Positions 15,447 through 50,675 of a DNA stretch of 62,931 bases are shown piece by piece. The DNA is taken from contig JBFRWD010000064.1 of NCBI GenBank assembly GCA_051439425.1, positions 1-62,931 on the forward strand. The letters are read 5' to 3'. Each line of letters begins with the position of its first letter. The stretch's first letter is position 1. The DNA is from Synechococcus sp. (GTDB lineage Bacteria; Cyanobacteriota; Cyanobacteriia; Thermostichales; PCC-7336). The position numbers were made by a program, and so were the translations under genes. The notes beneath the pieces were generated by a model. That model ran no database searches, was not told the origin of the DNA, and saw only the letters and a program-made list of their open reading frames with translations.

Positions 15447-16766
15447 TCAGGAGTTTAGATGTACAAGGTTTTGCCTCACTCCGGGATTTTTGAGTAGGGC
15501 CGGCACAATTCGATTGCTTGCTAACCGTGCCCCGAATAAATTACGCGCTACGGGACCAATTCGGAGTGCAGCGGCTCCGCCCATGATAAAGAGATTGCAC
15601 CCCGGCCAGCGAAGAAATTCATCCAGAATAGGTACTCCGTGGACAGTCGGGCATGGGAACTGGGACTGTATCTCAGACAGAAGCTCCCAATTGTCGACGT
15701 TCAGTTGGTTGCCTGTCGCTAGCCAGATGCGATCGATGGCTTGGTGGGCAATACAGGAGTGATGGTCGGGGTGCTCGCACTCTACTCTCCAAGCGTCTCC
15801 TTCCCATTGGGCCTGCTTCACTTCACAGTGTTCGAAAAACGTCAGTTTCTGCTCGTGTGAATTTCGCCGCAAGCGGGTCAGGACTGCTGGGGTGAGCGAC
15901 CCTCCATTTCGAGCCGCTTGCATCATCTGCCACCGTCGAGTCCAGTCCGGTTCGGCATGAAACTTCTTTAAGTATTTAGGCCCCAACCACCCAGGATCGG
16001 TGTCGAACAGCTTCTCGTAAAACTCTCGGCGGGCCATCATCATGACGGTTGCCCCCCGAGCGATCGCCCCCAGTGCTAGATGACCGCTGGTCAGTCCGCT
16101 GCCAACAATGAGGACTCTTTCCCCAGCCAGCTTGAGGGGCTGCAAATCGACATGCCGCGAATGCAGTAGCCGTTCGGCGGGGTAGGGGGAAAGTATGCGG
16201 GAGACCCAGTCAGGCAGGTGCTGAGTTCCTCCTCCCATTGCCAGCACAACCCTCCTGGTGTACATGCTGCGTCCATCAGCCATGACAAGGCGAAAGCGCT
16301 GCTTTTTCCATACAGAGCGACAGTGCTCGATGCTGACTACCCGGGCAGAGATGACCTTCTCAGCTAACCCCCAGCGCTCGATAGTGTGGTGGCAAAAGGC
16401 TCGAAACAAAGAGGTCCCCGGCAAATCGTAAGGGGGAAATAGTTCGTTAGGACGACCAGCCGCAAATGCTCGCAGGGCGTGGGGATTGGGGTCGGGATGG
16501 TGGACAGCGGGTGATCGCAAATGGGTGATGTCCATGGCTGCGAATTGATGGTGCCATTGCTGCATCCACTCTCCAGCAGGATCGATCGCCACAAACCGCT
16601 CTCGCATGGATTTCTTTTTCTGAATCAGATGTGTGGCTAAGGTTAAGGCTTGAGGCCCAGCCCCCACAATAGCGATATCGATTGATTCGGGTAGATTTGC
16701 TGACTTCGGCAGATCGGTTGCTGCGCACGATGACTGCTGACGGCGATCGGCAATTGACTGAACCAT
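15447..16766 (-). CDS. FAD/NAD(P)-binding oxidoreductase (SidA/IucD-like two-dinucleotide fold)
   Basis: GAGPQAL, HLRSPAVHHPDP, second Rossmann motif VGSGLTSGHL, WLATG, GPVARNLFGA. Confidence 0.85.
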   Translation of the reverse strand: MVQSIADRRQQSSCAATDLPKSANLPESIDIAIVGAGPQALTLATHLIQKKKSMRERFVAIDPAGEWMQQWHHQFAAMDITHLRSPAVHHPDPNPHALRAFAAGRPNELFPPYDLPGTSLFRAFCHHTIERWGLAEKVISARVVSIEHCRSVWKKQRFRLVMADGRSMYTRRVVLAMGGGTQHLPDWVSRILSPYPAERLLHSRHVDLQPLKLAGERVLIVGSGLTSGHLALGAIARGATVMMMARREFYEKLFDTDPGWLGPKYLKKFHAEPDWTRRWQMMQAARNGGSLTPAVLTRLRRNSHEQKLTFFEHCEVKQAQWEGDAWRVECEHPDHHSCIAHQAIDRIWLATGNQLNVDNWELLSEIQSQFPCPTVHGVPILDEFLRWPGCNLFIMGGAAALRIGPVARNLFGARLASNRIVPALLKNPGVRQNLVHLNS

Positions 16767-39941: not shown

Positions 39942-41021
39942 GTGGTCGCTCCTCCCCGACATTTGCTTGCCGATACCGAACGAGATATCCGTAAAACTGG
40001 AATTCATCCAGATTTTTGGTACCCAATTGCCCGTTCCTACCGGCTCAAGCCCGGCAAAACTCTCGCAGTCTCGTTTGCTGGCGAGCCTGTAGTTTTGGTG
40101 CGCACTCGCAACGGTGAGCTGTTCGCATTAGAAAATCGCTGTGCCCACCGCCAAGTTCCTCTCGATACGGGGGTGGTGGGGGATAACTGCTTGCAATGCG
40201 GCTATCACGGCTGGAAATACGATAATCAGGGCCGGTGTGTGACGGTACCCTATTTACCAAACCAGTGCGATCGCCCCAACGGAGTGAGGCACTATCCCTG
40301 CCGCGATGCCTACGGACTCATTTTCATCTTTCCAGGTGAAGTTTCTCAAGCAGAGACTGCATCCTTCCCCGACCTCAGCAACCATCACAGCCCTAATTAC
40401 AAAACTCGTTATCTAGATCGCCAAATCGATTGTCATTACTCCTTTTTGCACGAGAACTTGATGGATATGAACCATCAGTTTTTACACCGTCGTTTGATGG
40501 GGGGAATCAGGAGTATCTACTTGGGCCAGCGGCAGGGAGAGAGCTGGATCGAGGTGGACTACACTTTTGAGCGAGTCAAGGGTGGGCAAAACTGGGGGGA
40601 GAAATTTATCTTGCAGAAAACGTCCCACGAGCGGCAGCAGCAGTCTCAAGGGAAACGCGATCTCATGACTATCCGTACGGACTATCCCTACCAACGCCTC
40701 AAGTTTTGGACGGCGGGTAGCGAACAGCCAGCGATGGATTTATGGATTGTCTACGTCCCCCTCGATCGCCATCAACGCAGCAATCACACCTACGGTCTTA
40801 TGATGATTCGTCGGCCCAATCCCAAGTGGCTGATGGAACTGCTGTGGCCGTTTATTGTGAGATTCACCGAGGGAATTTTGGCGGAAGACCGAGAAATTGT
40901 GGAGCAGGAGCAACAAGCATTCGATCGCCAAGGTGCCGACTGGAACCAAGAAATTTTTCCTGTCATTCGTAACGTACGAGCCATTCTGGTTAGCCAAGGC
41001 ATACCGCTTGAAAACCCTTAG
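39942..41021 (+). CDS. Rieske non-heme iron oxygenase alpha subunit, substrate unknown
   Basis: Rieske ligands CAHR...CGYHGW; mononuclear Fe ligands ENLMDMNHQFLH and AED. Confidence 0.9.
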   Translation: MVAPPRHLLADTERDIRKTGIHPDFWYPIARSYRLKPGKTLAVSFAGEPVVLVRTRNGELFALENRCAHRQVPLDTGVVGDNCLQCGYHGWKYDNQGRCVTVPYLPNQCDRPNGVRHYPCRDAYGLIFIFPGEVSQAETASFPDLSNHHSPNYKTRYLDRQIDCHYSFLHENLMDMNHQFLHRRLMGGIRSIYLGQRQGESWIEVDYTFERVKGGQNWGEKFILQKTSHERQQQSQGKRDLMTIRTDYPYQRLKFWTAGSEQPAMDLWIVYVPLDRHQRSNHTYGLMMIRRPNPKWLMELLWPFIVRFTEGILAEDREIVEQEQQAFDRQGADWNQEIFPVIRNVRAILVSQGIPLENP

Positions 41022-42795: not shown

Positions 42796-43020
42796 AGAGC
42801 CACAACAGAACAACCACTCTGATGGCAAACCAGTAGCAGCATTCTGTAAAAACAATTGAACATCACTGCTGCTAAAGAGTTCTCTTTATAAACTGTTCAC
42901 TATTCATTCTGTTCCCCGCCAGGTGGCAGGTGCTTGGGCTGTATTTTGTATCGCGACTACGAATTTTTTGTCAGTGAACCAAACTGTACCCCTATCTCTT
43001 CTTGCACTGAATAAATAGAG

Positions 43021-43613
43021 GTAAGCCCCCGGCTCTGCCGGGGAGACTCCCAACGATTTGACCGTGTGAAGCAGTAGCAGAAAAATTCTCCTTGCATTTT
43101 TCAAGCAAGGAGAAAGTCTAATGAATGTCAAAAAGCTAAATCACACAAGTTGGAATTGCAAGTCTCACATCGTATTCATCCCTAAGCATCGTAAGATAGT
43201 AATCTTCGGCCAGTTGCGCAGTCATTTGGGCGAGATGTTTCACGAGCTGGCGCGGCAGAAAGAGTGTCAGATAGAAGAAGGCCATTTAATGTCCGACCAT
43301 GTGCACATGTGCATGAGTATTCCTCCGAAACATGCAGTGTCTCAGATAGTGGGGTACATGAAGGGCAAAAGCGCGATAGGAATCGCCAGGGAATTCATGG
43401 GTCGTCGTCGAAACATTAGCGGTGAGAGCTTCTGGGCTCGTGGCTACTACGTGTCGACGGTGGAATTGGATGAGGAAGTGATCGGAGCGTATATTCGTCG
43501 CCAGGAAAAAGAGGAAGAACGACTGGAGTAATTGAGATTGCCGACAATCTAAGAGAGGACTGCCCCTTGGGGGCTAAGCCTACTAAGCCTCCGGCTCTGC
43601 CGGAGGTGACTTA
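43021..43613 (+). mobile_element. IS200-type element (tnpA only) with subterminal hairpins
   Basis: Hairpins CCCGGCTCTGCCGGG (43028-43042) and CCTCCGGCTCTGCCGGAGG (43588-43606). Confidence 0.88.
43121..43531 (+). CDS. tnpA: IS200/IS605 Y1 transposase
   Basis: HIVFIPK, HuH motif DHVH, KGKS, FWARGYYVST, catalytic Tyr in AYIRRQ; probably truncated by a few residues. Confidence 0.9.
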   Translation: MNVKKLNHTSWNCKSHIVFIPKHRKIVIFGQLRSHLGEMFHELARQKECQIEEGHLMSDHVHMCMSIPPKHAVSQIVGYMKGKSAIGIAREFMGRRRNISGESFWARGYYVSTVELDEEVIGAYIRRQEKEEERLE

Positions 43614-44066
43614 ACTTCTGACTTGGAATAGCAGAGAGTCTTACGGCCCAATCGGACCAAATAATGCCGCAGCCTAGTGTTCTCCCCTTCCACCCGATAC
43701 ATGGCCTTTTTGCTCACCAGATGGTCGCCGTCGTCAATACAGCAAGCGTAACTGGCCATCCATCCGTGATGTAGAGAAAACACTGTCAGCCTCGAACCAA
43801 CAACCACAAGGGCCAGAACGTGTCCAAGCTCCGGTCACCTAGTTTCTAGACCAGGATACCGGGGCGCTTATCATCTACGGCTGTCCACAACCATCGCTTG
43901 TTTTTTTCGACCCGACAAAGGTTTGAAGCTCATCCAACTGGGCTAAGTCTGGACTCTTCTCGGGGGGAGGGGCATCAGGAAGAGAGTCACCCCCTTGCTT
44001 GACCCACTTAATCACTGTGTTGTGATTGACCCCTGTGCAGCGTTCAATGGCTCTAAACCCCATTCC
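43614..44066 (-). pseudogene. IS1-family transposase remnant
   Basis: MGFRAIERCTGVNHNTV, LDELQTFVGSKK, A7C slippery site at 43900-43907, EGENTRLRHYL.RL.RKTLCYSKS; stops and frameshifts, truncated at both ends. Confidence 0.85.
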
Positions 44067-44105
44067 ATCGCACCCACTGACAATACGTGACAGTGCCGGT
44101 CTACC

Positions 44106-44852
44106 TCATGGCTGGATGTGTGGCGGATATCCTTTGATCGGTTTTGAGTCGGGTTGCTGGTAAGTCATGGATTTGCTGGTGCGCTTGCCTAACCAAGCTA
44201 ACGACTCTGCCATTTTCACGGCTGCCGCTACCGAGTCAATGATGGGGACTCCCAATCGGGCTTCCAATTCCACATCCAGCCCGCTCATGCCCGCACACCC
44301 CAAACAGAGAGCTTCGGCTCGATCTTCAGAGATGGCCAATTTGCCTACCTGTTCTAATGCCGCGATGGTTGCTTCTCGAGCAGTCTCAGTTTTCGTCACT
44401 GCCAGCCCGGTAGTGCGTACAGACACACAGCGGTGGCTAAACCCTGTCTTGTGAATTGTTTCTTCGACCATTGTGCGGACGCGGTGTCCCGTAGTCACTA
44501 CTCCCCATCGAGCCGCCAGCATATTGGCGACGTACATACTGGCCTCGGCAATACCGACCACCGGCTTATCCGTTATCTCGCGGGCAGCGTCTATGCCGGG
44601 ATCGCCCCAGCAAGCGATCGCGAAGGCATCGAAACTGTCATCCGATCGCCGTATCTCCTCCAAAATTCCGGGAATCGCTAAAAATTCGTCGTAATAGCTC
44701 TCGATCGATTCCGGGCCAGATTGTGGTTGTGTGGTGACAATCTCAGTATTGGGGAATTGGGCTGCTTGGGCCGAGGCGTTAATTCCGGCGGTCATAGCCT
44801 CAAAGGTGTTGCCGTTGATGACTTTAATTCGAAGAGGTGGAGATGAGGACAC
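44106..44852 (-). CDS. Allantoin/hydantoin racemase (HpxA-like)
   Basis: VINGNT..MT, two catalytic Cys in IACWGDPG and LGCAGM, PVVGIAEAS. Confidence 0.9.
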   Translation of the reverse strand: MSSSPPLRIKVINGNTFEAMTAGINASAQAAQFPNTEIVTTQPQSGPESIESYYDEFLAIPGILEEIRRSDDSFDAFAIACWGDPGIDAAREITDKPVVGIAEASMYVANMLAARWGVVTTGHRVRTMVEETIHKTGFSHRCVSVRTTGLAVTKTETAREATIAALEQVGKLAISEDRAEALCLGCAGMSGLDVELEARLGVPIIDSVAAAVKMAESLAWLGKRTSKSMTYQQPDSKPIKGYPPHIQP

Positions 44853-44896
44853 GGGTGAATATTGCTCTCGCGTGAGAATTTAATGGTTGGGTGTTG

Positions 44897-45001
44897 TATT
44901 GCAATCCGCTGTGAGGTTTAGACTCTGGGGCCAGCTCAAAGCCTTAATCTACAAGCAGAAATGATTGGAGAACTCTCCATAGTGGATTGTCTAGCGCCAT
45001 A
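44897..45001 (+). repeat. ~105-bp dispersed hairpin repeat, copy 3
   Basis: TATTGCAATCCGCTGT...AAAGCCTTAATCTACAAG...CTCCATAGTGGATTGTCTAGCGCCATA. Confidence 0.85.
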
Positions 45002-45004
45002 AAA

Positions 45005-45502
45005 CTAGTCGATTAAATCGTACAAACGGAATTTTGCGATCGCTGCGATTTCAGCCATTGCGCGCTCAATTTCGCTGTCATTTGTATTTTCTATACGCTC
45101 GGCAAAGGCATTCAGAATGGTGTCTTTTGTTTGCCCGCGAACGGCCATCACAAATGGAAAGCCAAACTTCTCTCGGTACGCCCCATTTAATCGAGTGAAT
45201 AGCTCGAATTCAGCTGCATTGAGTCTATCCAGCCCCGCACCGGTCTGCTCCTGGATAGACGCCTCTGTCATTTTGACCTGACTACCTAAATCGGGATGAG
45301 CCTGAATTAGAGCAATCTTGTCCGATGTGGATAACGCCTGCTGAGCACGAAGCAATGCTTGATAGAGGTCGCTCACATCGGTAAAAGGACGACGATCCCA
45401 GGCTTGTCGAGCAAGGTCTGGACTGTGTTCGAATATGCCTCCGAATACTTCGCTAAACGTGTCCTGTCCCATCTCGTTGATGGTCAATAGTTTATACTTC
45501 AT
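45005..45502 (-). CDS. uraD: OHCU decarboxylase
   Basis: IFEHSP, AHPDLG, S..EQ..AGL, LN.AY.EKFGFPFV.AV, EI..IA.FRL. Confidence 0.95.
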   Translation of the reverse strand: MKYKLLTINEMGQDTFSEVFGGIFEHSPDLARQAWDRRPFTDVSDLYQALLRAQQALSTSDKIALIQAHPDLGSQVKMTEASIQEQTGAGLDRLNAAEFELFTRLNGAYREKFGFPFVMAVRGQTKDTILNAFAERIENTNDSEIERAMAEIAAIAKFRLYDLID

Positions 45503-45505
45503 CAG

Positions 45506-45865
45506 CTAACTCCCGCGATAGGTACTGTACGACCAAGGGGAGCAGAGTAGAGGAACGTGGTAGTGGCTGGAGGCGTCAGCAATACCGAACCGGATAGGAA
45601 TGATGTCTAAAAACATGGGATCGGGGAGCTGGGGCGATCGCGAGCGGAAATAGTCGCCGATTGCAAACCTAAGTTCGTAGATTCCGATTTCGAATCGATC
45701 GCCAGCTAATATGGGGCGATCGGTGCGGCCATCCTGATTGGTGACGATCCGTACGAGTTGAGTCTCGCTGCCTTGAGGAGAGCTTCTCCACAAGTCGATC
45801 GCCAGCCCCCCCGCCGGACAGCCATTTGCTGTATCGAGTACGTGTGTTGTTAGCTTTCCATCCAT
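45506..45865 (-). CDS. uraH: 5-hydroxyisourate hydrolase (transthyretin-like)
   Basis: LTTHVLDTANGCPA, TNQDGR, HYHVPLL.SPWSYSTYRGS. Confidence 0.96.
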   Translation of the reverse strand: MDGKLTTHVLDTANGCPAGGLAIDLWRSSPQGSETQLVRIVTNQDGRTDRPILAGDRFEIGIYELRFAIGDYFRSRSPQLPDPMFLDIIPIRFGIADASSHYHVPLLCSPWSYSTYRGS

Positions 45866-46196
45866 AGTCCTCGCCCTCATAGCCCACTTGCTTCCCGGCG
45901 ATCGCCGCTGTCTGCCCCCAGTTCCCAATTACAATCGCCTTCAAATGCTCCATTTGCAGATTCATAATCAGGGCATAATTTCCATGTTGGCGATGCTCTT
46001 GATTAGGCTATCCCTAACAATGAAGAATTTGGAAGATTACTTGGGTTGTCTCAAGCCATCTCATTGGTTCAAGTACAGCGACTAACGTTTTGCTAGTAAG
46101 ACAAGGCAGTCGCAAACGAGTCTCTTTCTCCAGAGCCAAGACTAGCCTTTTGCGCGGCCTCAAACGAGCGATCGCGGCTCAGTCAATCTATCCGAG

Positions 46197-47237
46197 TTAA
46201 GCAGTATAAATTCGACTTAACCCAAGATCGGCCAAACCTTTTCGGTACGCAATAGAGGTTTTGTCCGCTTCGATATGCGTTTCAACCCGCAAATCTAATG
46301 GCAGATCTTCTGGGTATTGGGCTTCTACAACAGCTTTGTCTTCGTTAAAGATTTGGTAGTTAAACTCGTAAACGGGTTCGAGCGGTTGATCCTTGTCGAA
46401 ATTGCGGCAAATGGGACAAAATACTCGAGTTTTGCGAGCTGAAATCGGAGAAGCAGCGTTGAGAATGCACAGTCGCCCGTCATCGGGGAAATGCACTCTC
46501 AGTAGTGCCGTGAATGGAAGAAAGACGTCGAAGGCTCTCAACCAGTGAAAATTAGCTGGGGCACGGTGCTGCAATCCTTTGGGGAAATTACTGACGGTAC
46601 TGGTATATGTCGCCCTGAGGCCAAAGTTTGTCGGTTTGACATCGTATTGAGGCACAACAGGGTTATTGCGATCGCCAAATGACTCGGAATGCACCCAGGC
46701 AAAATGAGCTACATCCAGAAAGCCTTCCATTTGACGACCTGCAGCTGCTTGCAAATCAATGCTATCCGGCAGGATGTGTTGATAATCCGAGTCGCTCCAT
46801 TCTGGAAATATCGGTAGTGGCGTGGAGCGATCGCCTCTCAATGTGGTCCACACTAAACCAAACGCCTCTTGAACCGGATAGGTCGTCAAGCAAAGCTTCC
46901 TCGGTATACTGGCCTGCGGATTAGCAGGAATTAGCGTGCATTGTCCTGCAGCATCGTAGTGAAATCCGTGATAGGCACAAATCAGTTGGTTGTTGGCTAC
47001 ATGCCCCATACTGAGGGGAACCCCCCGATGCAGACAGATGTCATTGGCAACTGAAATACCGGCTTCCGTTCGCCAGATTGCCAGTCGCTGGTCGAGCAAC
47101 GTTGCAGCAAGAGGAGTGCCTCCAACATCTCGGCTAAAGGCAATGGGATACCAAAACGAGGCGATCGCCTCCCAATCTGAGTCAGAAAACGTGCATCCAC
47201 GCGGATAGGCATGAGATGTGTGGTGAAAATCTGACAT
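46197..47237 (-). CDS. Rieske oxygenase, HpxD-like (hypoxanthine/xanthine hydroxylase subunit)
   Basis: CLHRG...CAYHG; AGRQMEGFLDVAHFAWVH; LNAASP; LPLDL..E.HI.AD..SIAYR match my recollection of Klebsiella HpxD; co-oriented with uraH and uraD. Confidence 0.8.
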   Translation of the reverse strand: MSDFHHTSHAYPRGCTFSDSDWEAIASFWYPIAFSRDVGGTPLAATLLDQRLAIWRTEAGISVANDICLHRGVPLSMGHVANNQLICAYHGFHYDAAGQCTLIPANPQASIPRKLCLTTYPVQEAFGLVWTTLRGDRSTPLPIFPEWSDSDYQHILPDSIDLQAAAGRQMEGFLDVAHFAWVHSESFGDRNNPVVPQYDVKPTNFGLRATYTSTVSNFPKGLQHRAPANFHWLRAFDVFLPFTALLRVHFPDDGRLCILNAASPISARKTRVFCPICRNFDKDQPLEPVYEFNYQIFNEDKAVVEAQYPEDLPLDLRVETHIEADKTSIAYRKGLADLGLSRIYTA

Positions 47238-47298
47238 ATCTCTCCTCTGGAAATGTCCCTTAACTCTGTCGCTGCGAAACCAAAAGAACGCCAATCAA

Positions 47299-47403
47299 TA
47301 TAGCAATCCGCTCTAAGGTCTGGAGTATTGAGACAACTAGAATCCTTTATTGGCGAGGAAAAGTACTTAGGAAACTCTCCATAGCGGATTGCCGATCGCT
47401 ATA
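47299..47403 (+). repeat. ~105-bp dispersed hairpin repeat, copy 4
   Basis: TATAGCAATCCGCTCTAAGGTCTGGAGT...CTCCATAGCGGATTGCCGATCGCTATA (best-preserved ends). Confidence 0.88.
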
Positions 47404-47735
47404 GAAGATGTCTGATTGTGTTCAGCTAGGACCCATCGATCTGTGATGTCTGAAACGATTTTCACTTGCTAATTCTCATCCTGACGGTAGCTGCCAGCTC
47501 TGTCTTTTAATGGAATGAAATGCTGCTGAAAACGATCCTCCTAGCATGCCACTGCAGCTTAATAATTAGACCCGTTGAGCACACCTGCCAGGCCTGCCTG
47601 GCAAATATTCACGAATCGATCGCTTCTCAGTGGGCAATTCCTTGCAGACGGCATTGAATAGGGGAAACAAGGGGTCTGGCGCAAAGATTCTGATTCGGGA
47701 ACAGCGTTTGGACCTACCTGAGGAGGGCGATTGCT

Positions 47736-49151
47736 ATGGGCCGGACGCTAATTAAAGGAAGCCGTATTGTCACCGCCACTGATGACTATGTTGCCGATAT
47801 TTTAATTGTAGATGAGGAGATCGAGGCCATCTCCCGCAGCTTTCCCGACATGTCCGGTACAGAAGTGCATCATGCCGAAGGACTGCTCGCTCTTCCGGGT
47901 GGAATCGATGTGCATACCCATATGGAAGGGGAGCAAGGTCCGGCATTTAATAGCGATACCTACGCCACCGGAACCGTTGCCGCAGCATTTGGGGGCACGA
48001 CAACCATCATCGATTTTGCCTATCAGGACAAAGGTGACAGTGCCAAACAGACATTGGACGAGCGGCTTGCCTTAGCTGAGCCCCAGGTGGCAATTGATTT
48101 CAGCTTCCACTTAATTTTGACAGACGTGACCTCGGCCGTTCTGTCCGAGCTGCCGGACATCATCAATCAGGATGGTGTGTCCAGCTTCAAGATGTTTATG
48201 GCCTATCCCAAAATCTTGATGGTAGATGATGCTGCAATCTTCAAAACCATGCGCAAGGTGGGTAGCCACGGAGGCATGGTCAACCTGCATGCCGAAAACG
48301 GCCTTGTCATTCAAGCCTTGATCGACGAAGCCCTGGAACAGGGACATACCTCCCCTAAATATCACGCCATTACCCGCCCACGCATTATGGAAGCGGAGGC
48401 AGTGCACCGGGCTATCCGGATTGCCGAGTTGGCAGAAATTCCGGTATACATCGTGCATCTGTCAGCGCCGGAAGCACTGGAAACAGTGGTGGAAGCCCGA
48501 GATCGCGGCATTCATGCCTTTGCCGAAACCTGTCCTCACTACCTGTTTTTAGATGAATCCGAATACGATCGTCCCGGCTTTGAATCTGCCAAGTATGTCA
48601 TGACTCCTCCGCTGCGATCGCACGATTGCCAGCATCATTTATGGAGAGGGTTAAAGTTTGACGATCTGCAAATTGTGGCCACCGATCACTGTCCATTTTG
48701 CTTCCAAGAAAACACCCTCGGTCTCAAATATTCCAAAGACCTTGGTCGAGACGATTTCAGCAAAATTCCCAATGGTGCACCTGGTGTCGAATACCGCTTG
48801 CCCATGTTGTATGACGGTGGGGTACGCAGTGGCAAAATCAATCTGAACCGATTCGTACAGCTCACCTCCACGGCTCCAGCCAAAATGTTTGGCATCTTCC
48901 CTCAAAAAGGCACGATTGCGGTAGGTAGTGATGCAGATATCGTTCTGTTTAATCCAGATAAACAGCAGGTGTTGAGCGCCGAAACAGGTCACTCTCGCAT
49001 TGACTACAGCTTATTTGAGGGGCGATCGGTGACGGGAGCGGTTGAGAAAGTCTTCTCTCGCGGCAGTTTGATTGTGGATGGAGATCGCTGGTTGGGTCAG
49101 GCTGGCCGTGGACGATTTCTTAAACGCTCTGCCTCAGGTCAAATTATGTAA
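47736..49151 (+). CDS. hydA: Dihydropyrimidinase / D-hydantoinase-type cyclic amidohydrolase
   Basis: GGIDVHTH, SSFKMFMAY (carboxylated Lys), HAEN, VHLS, TDHCPF, IPNGAPGVE. Confidence 0.9.
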   Translation: MGRTLIKGSRIVTATDDYVADILIVDEEIEAISRSFPDMSGTEVHHAEGLLALPGGIDVHTHMEGEQGPAFNSDTYATGTVAAAFGGTTTIIDFAYQDKGDSAKQTLDERLALAEPQVAIDFSFHLILTDVTSAVLSELPDIINQDGVSSFKMFMAYPKILMVDDAAIFKTMRKVGSHGGMVNLHAENGLVIQALIDEALEQGHTSPKYHAITRPRIMEAEAVHRAIRIAELAEIPVYIVHLSAPEALETVVEARDRGIHAFAETCPHYLFLDESEYDRPGFESAKYVMTPPLRSHDCQHHLWRGLKFDDLQIVATDHCPFCFQENTLGLKYSKDLGRDDFSKIPNGAPGVEYRLPMLYDGGVRSGKINLNRFVQLTSTAPAKMFGIFPQKGTIAVGSDADIVLFNPDKQQVLSAETGHSRIDYSLFEGRSVTGAVEKVFSRGSLIVDGDRWLGQAGRGRFLKRSASGQIM

Positions 49152-49251
49152 TGGACATTCTGGTTACTCCCAATCTCCAGAATTCCGAGCGTTGCTGCAG
49201 CGCAATCGCTACACTGACTCCAGCCATAGTAAGTCTGGGGAGTAACGGAGG

Positions 49252-50190
49252 ATGACAGCCACGGCAACCGCCGGGATGTTAGTTGCTCAGTTTTTGAAAG
49301 AGCGAGAGCGGGATTTGGCACGGGCCAGCCGTCGCACCTACCGCATGGCATTGGAACAATTCAGCCAAGATTGCACCCTCCCCCTCAACGACATTCAAAC
49401 TACGGACATTCAAAAATTCTTGAATGGCTTGAAAGGGCGACCCAAACGCAATAAGTCTGGCAAGTTGGTCTATCCACCTGCCTCCCCCGCCACGTATAAC
49501 CTCAAGCGTCTTGCCTTACATCAATTTTTTGCCTGGGCTGAATCGCGAGGATACTGCGAGCCCCCGCTACCCACTGCTCCTATCCGAGCGGCCCGTTTAC
49601 CCTCCAAACTGCCGCGAGACATCGATCGCCTCATGCTAGAGCGAGTGTTGATTCGCGCCGATAGCCACTCGTTGCGGTATTCGGTGATGGTGCGCGTGTT
49701 ACTGGAGTGCGGCTTGCGGGCGCAAGAGGCGATCGACTTGCAAGTACAAGATTTTCAAACCAGTGCCGAAGGCTCGATTTTAGATGTGCGCAGCGGTAAA
49801 GGCAGTAAACCCCGCGTCGTGGCGGTGGGCGACACTTTGGCCGAAATGCTGCAAGATTATCTTTACGAAGAGCGCTTCCCTTATTCCCCCACCGACCCGT
49901 TATTTGCCTCTCAGTCCAAATGCCAGCGCTACCGAGGTAAACCTCTCACCTACGACGGGCTAAGGCACATTGTTCTAAAGCTAACTCGCGATGAACCCGG
50001 GCAGCAGACCCCCCACCAATTCCGCCACAGCTTTGCTACTCTTTTGCTCGATAAAGGCGTTGCCCCTGAACACATCCAGCACTTATTAGGTCATACGACC
50101 GCAGCCATGACCATGCGGTACACACAGCGGGCCAATCTACGAGCGGCGATCGCCCGCTCCCGCGAAGCGTTGGATACCGGCTTGATTTGA
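49252..50190 (+). CDS. Tyrosine recombinase (XerC/D-like)
   Basis: GLRAQE, GKGSKPR, PHQFRHSFAT, LLGH, TMRY; all catalytic residues present. Confidence 0.93.
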   Translation: MTATATAGMLVAQFLKERERDLARASRRTYRMALEQFSQDCTLPLNDIQTTDIQKFLNGLKGRPKRNKSGKLVYPPASPATYNLKRLALHQFFAWAESRGYCEPPLPTAPIRAARLPSKLPRDIDRLMLERVLIRADSHSLRYSVMVRVLLECGLRAQEAIDLQVQDFQTSAEGSILDVRSGKGSKPRVVAVGDTLAEMLQDYLYEERFPYSPTDPLFASQSKCQRYRGKPLTYDGLRHIVLKLTRDEPGQQTPHQFRHSFATLLLDKGVAPEHIQHLLGHTTAAMTMRYTQRANLRAAIARSREALDTGLI

Positions 50191-50294
50191 GTCATGGCAT
50201 GTGGCTGTGCCGTTGAATCGGGATGCTACTGACAGCAGGACTCTCAGAATTACTCAACTCATAATGGATTCAAGATGAATAGCGAGGCCGAGCT

Positions 50295-50675
50295 TTGAAG
50301 ACGATCGCTAACCTACTGTGGGTGCTCTTCGGCGGATTTATTCTGGCGTTGGAATATTGGTTGGGAGGATTGCTGCTGTGCCTGACAATCGTGGGCATTC
50401 CGTTTGGCTTGCAGGCGATTAAGTTGGGGTCATTTGCCATCTGGCCCTTTGGAAAACAACTAGTTGAAGTCCCCACAAAAAGTGTTGGGGGCATTTTGCG
50501 AGCTTTGCTGAACGTGGTGTGGGCTCTCACCTTTGGGATTGCGATCGCGCTGACCCATCTCACTGCTGCTGCCGTAACGGCCATTACTATTATTGGAATT
50601 CCGTTTGCCTTGCAACACCTCAAAATGGTGCCTCTGGCCCTGCTTCCTTTCGGACAGACGTGGAAATCACTGTGA
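50295..50675 (+). CDS. YccF domain inner membrane protein
   Basis: Duplicated N.LW..FGG...TIVGIPFG...WPFG motif; TTG start. Confidence 0.9.
   Translation: MKTIANLLWVLFGGFILALEYWLGGLLLCLTIVGIPFGLQAIKLGSFAIWPFGKQLVEVPTKSVGGILRALLNVVWALTFGIAIALTHLTAAAVTAITIIGIPFALQHLKMVPLALLPFGQTWKSL

Follow-up and report, generated by a model that had tools for sequence, protein, structure and literature searches.

The DNA analyzed here is contig JBFRWD010000064.1 of Synechococcus sp. (assembly GCA_051439425.1), 62,931 nucleotides long and called the window as a whole, in which a small cluster of purine-breakdown genes surrounds a gene for a Rieske-type oxygenase (positions 44106-49151). Open reading frames (ORFs) were listed and the window proteins scanned with family profiles, which gave the following genes for the cluster and its two flanks:

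43121..43531, plus strand: IS200/IS605 transposase, flank of the cluster (NF033573, 133.1 bits, cut-off 55; PF01797)
44106..44852, minus strand: Asp/Glu/hydantoin racemase family protein, allantoin racemase-like, HpxA type (PF01177, 178.9 bits)
45005..45502, minus strand: 2-oxo-4-hydroxy-4-carboxy-5-ureidoimidazoline (OHCU) decarboxylase, UraD/HpxQ type (TIGR03164, 186.7 bits, cut-off 96.25; PF09349, 157.5 bits)
45506..45865, likely gene within ORF 45506-45928, minus strand: 5-hydroxyisourate (HIU) hydrolase, UraH/HpxT type (TIGR02962, 125.5 bits, cut-off 87.45; PF00576, 123.5 bits)
46197..47237, likely gene within ORF 46197-47294, minus strand: Rieske and VanA_C oxygenase, HpxD-like, 346 aa (PF00355, 67.9 bits; PF19112, 81.8 bits)
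47736..49151, plus strand: D-hydantoinase/dihydropyrimidinase (hydA), divergent from the Rieske gene (TIGR02033, 566.2 bits, cut-off 393.25)
49252..50190, plus strand: tyrosine recombinase, XerC/D-like, flank of the cluster (PF00589, 104.3 bits; all Xer-type NCBIfam models below cut-off)

The Rieske gene probably starts at 47237, since its database homologues are 346 aa long, and uraH presumably starts at the ATG at 45865, since the TIGR02962 match begins at residue 25. HIU hydrolase and OHCU decarboxylase both score above their equivalog cut-offs. The stop of uraH is overlapped by 4 bases by the start of uraD, and 152 bases separate uraD from the racemase gene, which comes next on that strand. 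This arrangement of four minus-strand genes with a divergent hydA had been proposed from the letters alone (hereafter the sequence-only reading) and was borne out by the ORFs and the profile scans.

The same reading had remarked that the window holds no recognized urate oxidase to link the Rieske enzyme with UraH and UraD. This is correct: neither PF01014 nor PuuD is matched in the window, HpxO is encoded on another contig and the only PF13454 protein is a generic one. A profile search was made of the whole genome of the organism (G000; 4.8 Mb in 182 contigs, 96.17% complete, the window being contig C64), as the sequence-only reading had proposed. Uricase (PF01014), PuuD (PF06181) and the MoCoBD_1 domain of molybdenum hydroxylases, the mark of a molybdenum xanthine dehydrogenase (XDH), gave no match anywhere in this genome. 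Of 16 matches in the FAD_binding_3 scan, four extend along most of the profile, and one of these four is an HpxO equivalog at G000:C142:46167-47360(-) (NF033623, 593.5 bits, cut-off 500). In a phmmer comparison the protein aligned across residues 3-385 with PDB entry 3rp6 (423.6 bits), which was deposited as 'flavoprotein monooxygenase' and which we take to be the Klebsiella HpxO. Divergent from hpxO lies a gene for an NCS2 xanthine permease of the pbuX type (TIGR03173, 447.5 bits, cut-off 414). A score over the equivalog cut-off, a full-length match to a solved enzyme and a purine-related neighborhood are thus combined in this one gene. The hole in the pathway exists at the level of the window only and is closed at the level of the genome by HpxO on C142, so that the suggestion of a gene located elsewhere in the genome proved right. 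Genes for later steps were found on two more contigs, namely a PuuE-type allantoinase at C48:6497-7483 (TIGR03212, 548.8 bits, cut-off 424.6) and a protein of the allantoate amidohydrolase subfamily at C140:77263-78516 (NF006771, 428.2 bits, cut-off 399), which scores also as a hydantoinase/carbamoylase-family amidase.

The distribution of these genes was followed in 151 cyanobacterial genomes, each at least 90% complete, the same set being used in every profile search. Rieske orthologues were defined by E<=1e-60, and HpxO, UraD and XdhB by scores over the model cut-offs; the sampled genomes are related to one another and no statistical test is claimed. A Rieske orthologue is present in 27 of the 151 genomes, HpxO in 64, UraD in 64, XdhB in 20 and uricase in none. 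HpxO (64/151), not uricase (0/151), is accordingly the urate oxidase of the sampled cyanobacteria. It occurs together with UraD in 61 genomes, and each of the two occurs without the other in three. Both are found in 25 of the 27 Rieske-bearing genomes, while the remaining two, G043 and G068, contain neither, and a Rieske orthologue and UraD without HpxO were encountered in no genome (0 of the 25 with Rieske and UraD). In no sampled genome is the Rieske enzyme needed for urate oxidation. As to the formation of urate, the 61 genomes that combine HpxO with UraD divide into 13 with the Rieske orthologue only, eight with XdhB only, 12 with both and 28 with neither over the cut-off; 13 of these 28 are without even a weaker match to the XdhB model. 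Several genomes contain a molybdenum-enzyme ORF of 900-1000 aa that scores about 230-310 bits against the XdhB model, under the cut-off, and in one case (G039:C176:21768-27127) it lies between uraD and HpxO. Such ORFs may represent a different, fused type of XDH for urate formation in cyanobacteria.

One window protein was considered as a candidate HpyO and rejected, though on weak evidence. This flavoprotein of 439 aa (15447-16766(-), 28 kb from the cluster) is the only one in the window with PF13454, presumably the domain of HpyO. It has no NCBIfam match, scores as Lys/Orn N-oxygenase-like and has generic flavoproteins as its neighbors in the atlas; orthologues occur in 41 of the 151 genomes, and 11 of the 41 are without UraD. 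Its gene adjoins folE, and in G137 the orthologue is found about 6 kb from xdhB. On contig C142, directly downstream of hpxO, lies a gene (G000:C142:44857-45789, minus strand) for a protein of 310 aa that carries part of a tryptophan 2,3-dioxygenase domain (PF03301, 77.1 bits).

The relatives of the Rieske protein point to its likely family. A scan of the genome collection with this protein yielded 62 loci: 47 of the cyanobacterial type with 70-86% identity (one of them titled only 'uncultured bacterium'), ten from Peribacillus, Bacillus or Alicyclobacillus with 56-57% identity and five from Pantoea or Enterobacter with 50% identity, the last aligning end to end over residues 10-344. In the enterobacterial loci a gene for a LysR-type regulator is followed by the Rieske gene and by a gene for a 321-aa reductase with FNR-type and 2Fe-2S domains, an order that we take to be hpxR-hpxDE. 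In the available parts of two reports, hpxDE is responsible for turning hypoxanthine into urate (PMC7373994, PMC13751858). Six Rieske proteins could be aligned collinearly along their full length, with invariant C68-x-H70...C87-x2-H90 and D175-x2-H178-x4-H183, that is, the ligands of the Rieske [2Fe-2S] cluster and the D-x2-H-x4-H iron motif of VanA_C. These ligands and the full-length likeness to an enterobacterial protein that is flanked by a LysR gene and precedes a reductase make HpxD-like a reasonable label for the predicted enzyme. RefSeq names are generic for the cyanobacterial copies that were looked up, and HpxD is the name of one metagenome entry with 78% identity. Among solved structures, those of SxtDIOX/SxtT and of the methylxanthine demethylases NdmA/NdmB come closest (133-158 bits). 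These enzymes share the Rieske and VanA_C-type architecture and act on purine or purine-derived substrates, but they stand at a much greater distance than the HpxD-type proteins, catalyze N-demethylation or hydroxylation of alkaloids and are not located in urate-catabolic gene contexts. A second oxygenase with Rieske and VanA_C domains (359 aa) is encoded in the window at 39942-41021 on the plus strand, 5 kb off the cluster; it reaches 167.1 bits against the 4-beta-methylsterol monooxygenase model NF052579, far under the cut-off of 600, and belongs to another subfamily than the HpxD-like protein.

In relatives, the Rieske gene is found in the company of a separate urate oxidase. In the cyanobacterial locus L064 the order is Rieske, amidohydrolase, an HpxO-like protein (59% identical to the C142 protein) and UraD; in L023, the closest relative, it is amidase, Rieske (82% identical), permease (85%) and HpxO-like protein (77%). 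In the Peribacillus locus L049, the one Firmicutes locus checked domain by domain, uraH is followed by a PucL-type fusion of OHCU decarboxylase and uricase and then by a permease and a regulator; after the Rieske gene come an M20 amidase, an aminotransferase and an AllB allantoinase. This locus resembles a puc cluster of the Bacillus type and shares with the Synechococcus genome a Rieske homologue in the company of uraH, an OHCU decarboxylase domain, a permease, an amidase and an allantoinase. It differs in having a fusion of a cofactor-less uricase with the decarboxylase as its urate oxidase and an allantoinase of the AllB type. Among the ten Firmicutes loci, local tblastn searches detected uraH in seven and uraD in eight.

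Taken together, these data make it likely that the cluster forms part of an aerobic purine-breakdown pathway of the Klebsiella (hpx) type, dispersed over a cyanobacterial genome. Gene identities were assigned from profile scores, and we infer every catalytic step from family membership and gene neighborhoods. Xanthine or hypoxanthine would enter the cell through the NCS2 permease encoded on C142 and would be hydroxylated to urate by the HpxD-like oxygenase (46197-47237). The proposal that the Rieske enzyme acts as a (hypo)xanthine hydroxylase yielding urate draws support from its genomic context, since the genome contains no molybdenum XDH. Electrons would probably be delivered by ferredoxin, since a reductase of the HpxE type was not found. 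The FAD-dependent urate hydroxylase HpxO would then convert urate to 5-hydroxyisourate, from which UraH and UraD of the window would form (S)-allantoin, and the HpxA-like racemase would interconvert the allantoin enantiomers. Ring opening is assigned to the PuuE-type allantoinase, possibly with a contribution of the neighboring D-hydantoinase, and the allantoate amidohydrolase would lead onward to ammonia.

As far as the Klebsiella pneumoniae and Klebsiella oxytoca hpx systems (HpxDE, HpxO, HpxT, HpxQ, HpxA, HpxB/PuuE and HpxP) are covered by the available parts of PMC7373994 and PMC13751858, the same families would serve at each step (HpxD-like Rieske enzyme, HpxO, HIU hydrolase, OHCU decarboxylase, allantoin racemase and PuuE), and an NCS2 permease gene adjoins hpxO in Klebsiella and here alike. 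Unlike in Klebsiella, neither an HpxE reductase nor a LysR regulator was found, at least four contigs (C64, C142, C48 and C140) of a cyanobacterial host carry the genes between them, and a D-hydantoinase gene is divergent from the Rieske gene. A literature search by title and abstract opening returned no paper on a cyanobacterial HpxD/HpxO pathway. What emerges is not a new pathway but a testable example of a purine hydroxylase that a phototroph would run without molybdenum and possibly on ferredoxin, with HpxD-type Rieske oxygenases in 27 of the 151 sampled cyanobacteria and no recognizable dedicated reductase.

Several observations weigh against a (hypo)xanthine hydroxylase in an hpx-type pathway. 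The dedicated HpxE-type partner, a component of the Klebsiella enzyme, is missing: tblastn with the Pantoea reductase left the Synechococcus genome without a hit at E<=1e-5, and among the 62 loci it found hits in the five enterobacterial ones only and in none of the 57 others. Of the 47 cyanobacterial-type loci, no more than 8 had HpxO, uraH, uraD or a permease near the Rieske gene within the fetched DNA, many of these contigs being short (a few kilobases). XdhB exceeds its cut-off in 12 of the 27 Rieske-bearing genomes, and the two enzymes would be redundant in these genomes if both made urate from xanthine. In G140 (locus L081, G140:C67:52000-71900), xdhA-xdhB-xdhC and the Rieske gene are even found on one strand at a distance of about 700 bases, with only a gene for a GNAT acetyltransferase in between. 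Finally, a gene of an 8-oxoguanine deaminase cluster comes next after the Rieske gene in 23 of 61 compared loci, which leaves the purine substrate open. The 23 loci with this amidohydrolase gene are all cyanobacterial (L014, L020-L022, L024, L025, L027, L029-L031, L033, L035, L036, L038-L040, L043, L045, L055, L059, L060, L064 and L075); the cluster is represented by the gene in L014, the product of which qualifies as an 8-oxoguanine deaminase equivalog (NF006055, 681.8 bits, cut-off 532), and an 85% identical copy of it occurs in L083. In G068, which is of the same genus as G140, the Rieske gene is accompanied by a gene for a 325-aa protein at the matching position, and XdhB, HpxO and UraD are absent.

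It is conceivable from these neighborhoods that the Rieske enzyme acts on another purine, for example by oxidizing guanine at C8 to 8-oxoguanine, from which a deaminase would produce urate, or that it acts on methylated or otherwise modified purines. The adjoining deaminase genes, the co-occurrence with XdhB and the purine-alkaloid substrates of NdmA/NdmB and SxtT/SxtDIOX all fit such a role. However, the deaminase could equally well supply xanthine from guanine as receive 8-oxoguanine made by the Rieske enzyme, and the Synechococcus genome has no orthologue of it, the best tblastn hit being 27.7% identical and that protein reaching 246 bits where 532 is the cut-off. The same genome is without XDH, so that the HpxO-UraH-UraD branch, if in use, depends on some enzyme to form urate, and the 50% identity to the enterobacterial HpxD-type protein also favors the hydroxylation of xanthine or hypoxanthine. 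A different purine substrate therefore seems unlikely for the cyanobacterial Rieske enzyme. A broader version would have the cyanobacterial HpxD-type oxygenases run without HpxE, directly on photosynthetic ferredoxin, and serve not as xanthine hydroxylases but as an entry of guanine via 8-oxoguanine and urate into the HpxO-UraH-UraD branch wherever they are paired with the deaminase or located beside xdhABC; this combination looks distinctly unlikely.

The role of the racemase and of the hydA product was judged from their closest solved relatives. The racemase scores 175.4 bits to PDB entry 3qvj, which we take to be the Klebsiella HpxA, and 174.6 bits to 5lfd ('Allantoin racemase'), against 43.4 bits to the archaeal hydantoin racemase 2eq5, and both motifs with the catalytic cysteines (IACWGDPG and LGCAGMS) align. 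The predicted protein is thus far closer to allantoin racemases than to the hydantoin racemase. Its orthologue lies within 1 kb of HpxO in G074 and divergent from the Rieske gene in G043, and no racemase gene was seen near the Rieske gene in the fetched DNA of the 62 loci. For the hydA product, the comparison is reversed: it scores 456.6 bits to the D-hydantoinase 3sfw against 188.4 bits to the allantoinase 3hm7, and only 265.4 bits against the allantoinase model TIGR03178, below the cut-off of 357.85 expected of AllB. It is accordingly predicted to be a true D-hydantoinase/dihydropyrimidinase. Orthologues were found in 31 of the 151 genomes, 29 of which have HpxO as well, a figure inflated by the relatedness of the genomes; they are usually not near purine genes and lie about 1 kb from the racemase gene in G026 only. 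The tie of hydA to purine breakdown is one of position alone. With a PuuE allantoinase encoded elsewhere in the genome, a share of the hydA product in allantoin hydrolysis is conceivable, yet nothing supports it.

These properties might also be explained if racemase and D-hydantoinase formed a pair for the utilization of hydantoins or dihydropyrimidines outside purine breakdown, in which case their place beside uraH-uraD would be incidental. The separate PuuE, the proximity of the two genes in G026 and the second assignment of the C140 amidase to the hydantoinase/carbamoylase family are in line with such a pair. It nevertheless appears very unlikely in view of the scores of the racemase, its position after uraD on the same strand, its neighbors in G074 and G043 and, with the reservation made above, the HpxO found along with most hydA orthologues.

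That the Rieske oxygenase itself takes urate to 5-hydroxyisourate, alone or besides making urate, so that the window cluster would be a self-sufficient new route, has scarcely any chance of being correct: the Rieske gene is directly upstream of uraH-uraD on the same strand in a window with no recognized urate oxidase, and a Rieske monooxygenase would in principle match the overall stoichiometry of HpxO, but the genome has HpxO beside a xanthine permease, no sampled genome combines Rieske and UraD without it, the two Rieske genomes without HpxO are without UraD as well, and relatives of the Rieske gene stand beside HpxO or a PucL uricase. Of the interpretation offered by the sequence-only reading, the missing gene has thus been located on C142, while its idea of the Rieske enzyme as urate oxidase found no support. 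The undescribed urate-oxidizing system that it envisaged is unsupported and, given a standard HpxO in the genome, is not needed; a canonical enzyme of this kind encoded outside the window was among the results that it had named as refuting this system.

Signals of regulation around the presumed hpx-type genes were sought in the window. NtcA-type sites (GTA-N8-TAC) number 6 against 4.72 expected, with none in the intergenic region 47238-47735 between the Rieske gene and hydA. The promoter and terminator scans gave numbers of sites not above those in shuffled sequences. An Rfam scan of 42800-50400 at E<=0.1 produced no match and therefore no xanthine riboswitch in this region.

Finally, the origin of the cluster was approached through the other 11 sampled genomes of the same order (G129 of the same genus and ten of a neighboring family). 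None of them contains the Rieske gene, HpxO, UraD or an orthologue of hydA, and the racemase is absent as well, bar one weak match with 35% identity in G118. When window positions 42800-50400 were compared with G129, the recombinase gene (935 bases, 78% nucleotide identity) and 57 bases at the far end were all that aligned, so that G129 has the recombinase gene and is devoid of the cluster genes. This distribution and the flanking transposase hint at acquisition of the cluster from another cyanobacterium. The 72 HIP1 sites (GCGATCGC) of the window compare with an expected 1.68, and 72 was reached in 0 of 100 shuffles; their presence across the window, as noted in the sequence-only reading, was hereby confirmed and fits a cyanobacterial chromosome. 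Nine of the sites lie within 44106-49151, and a cyanobacterial donor would account for these HIP1 sites inside the cluster.

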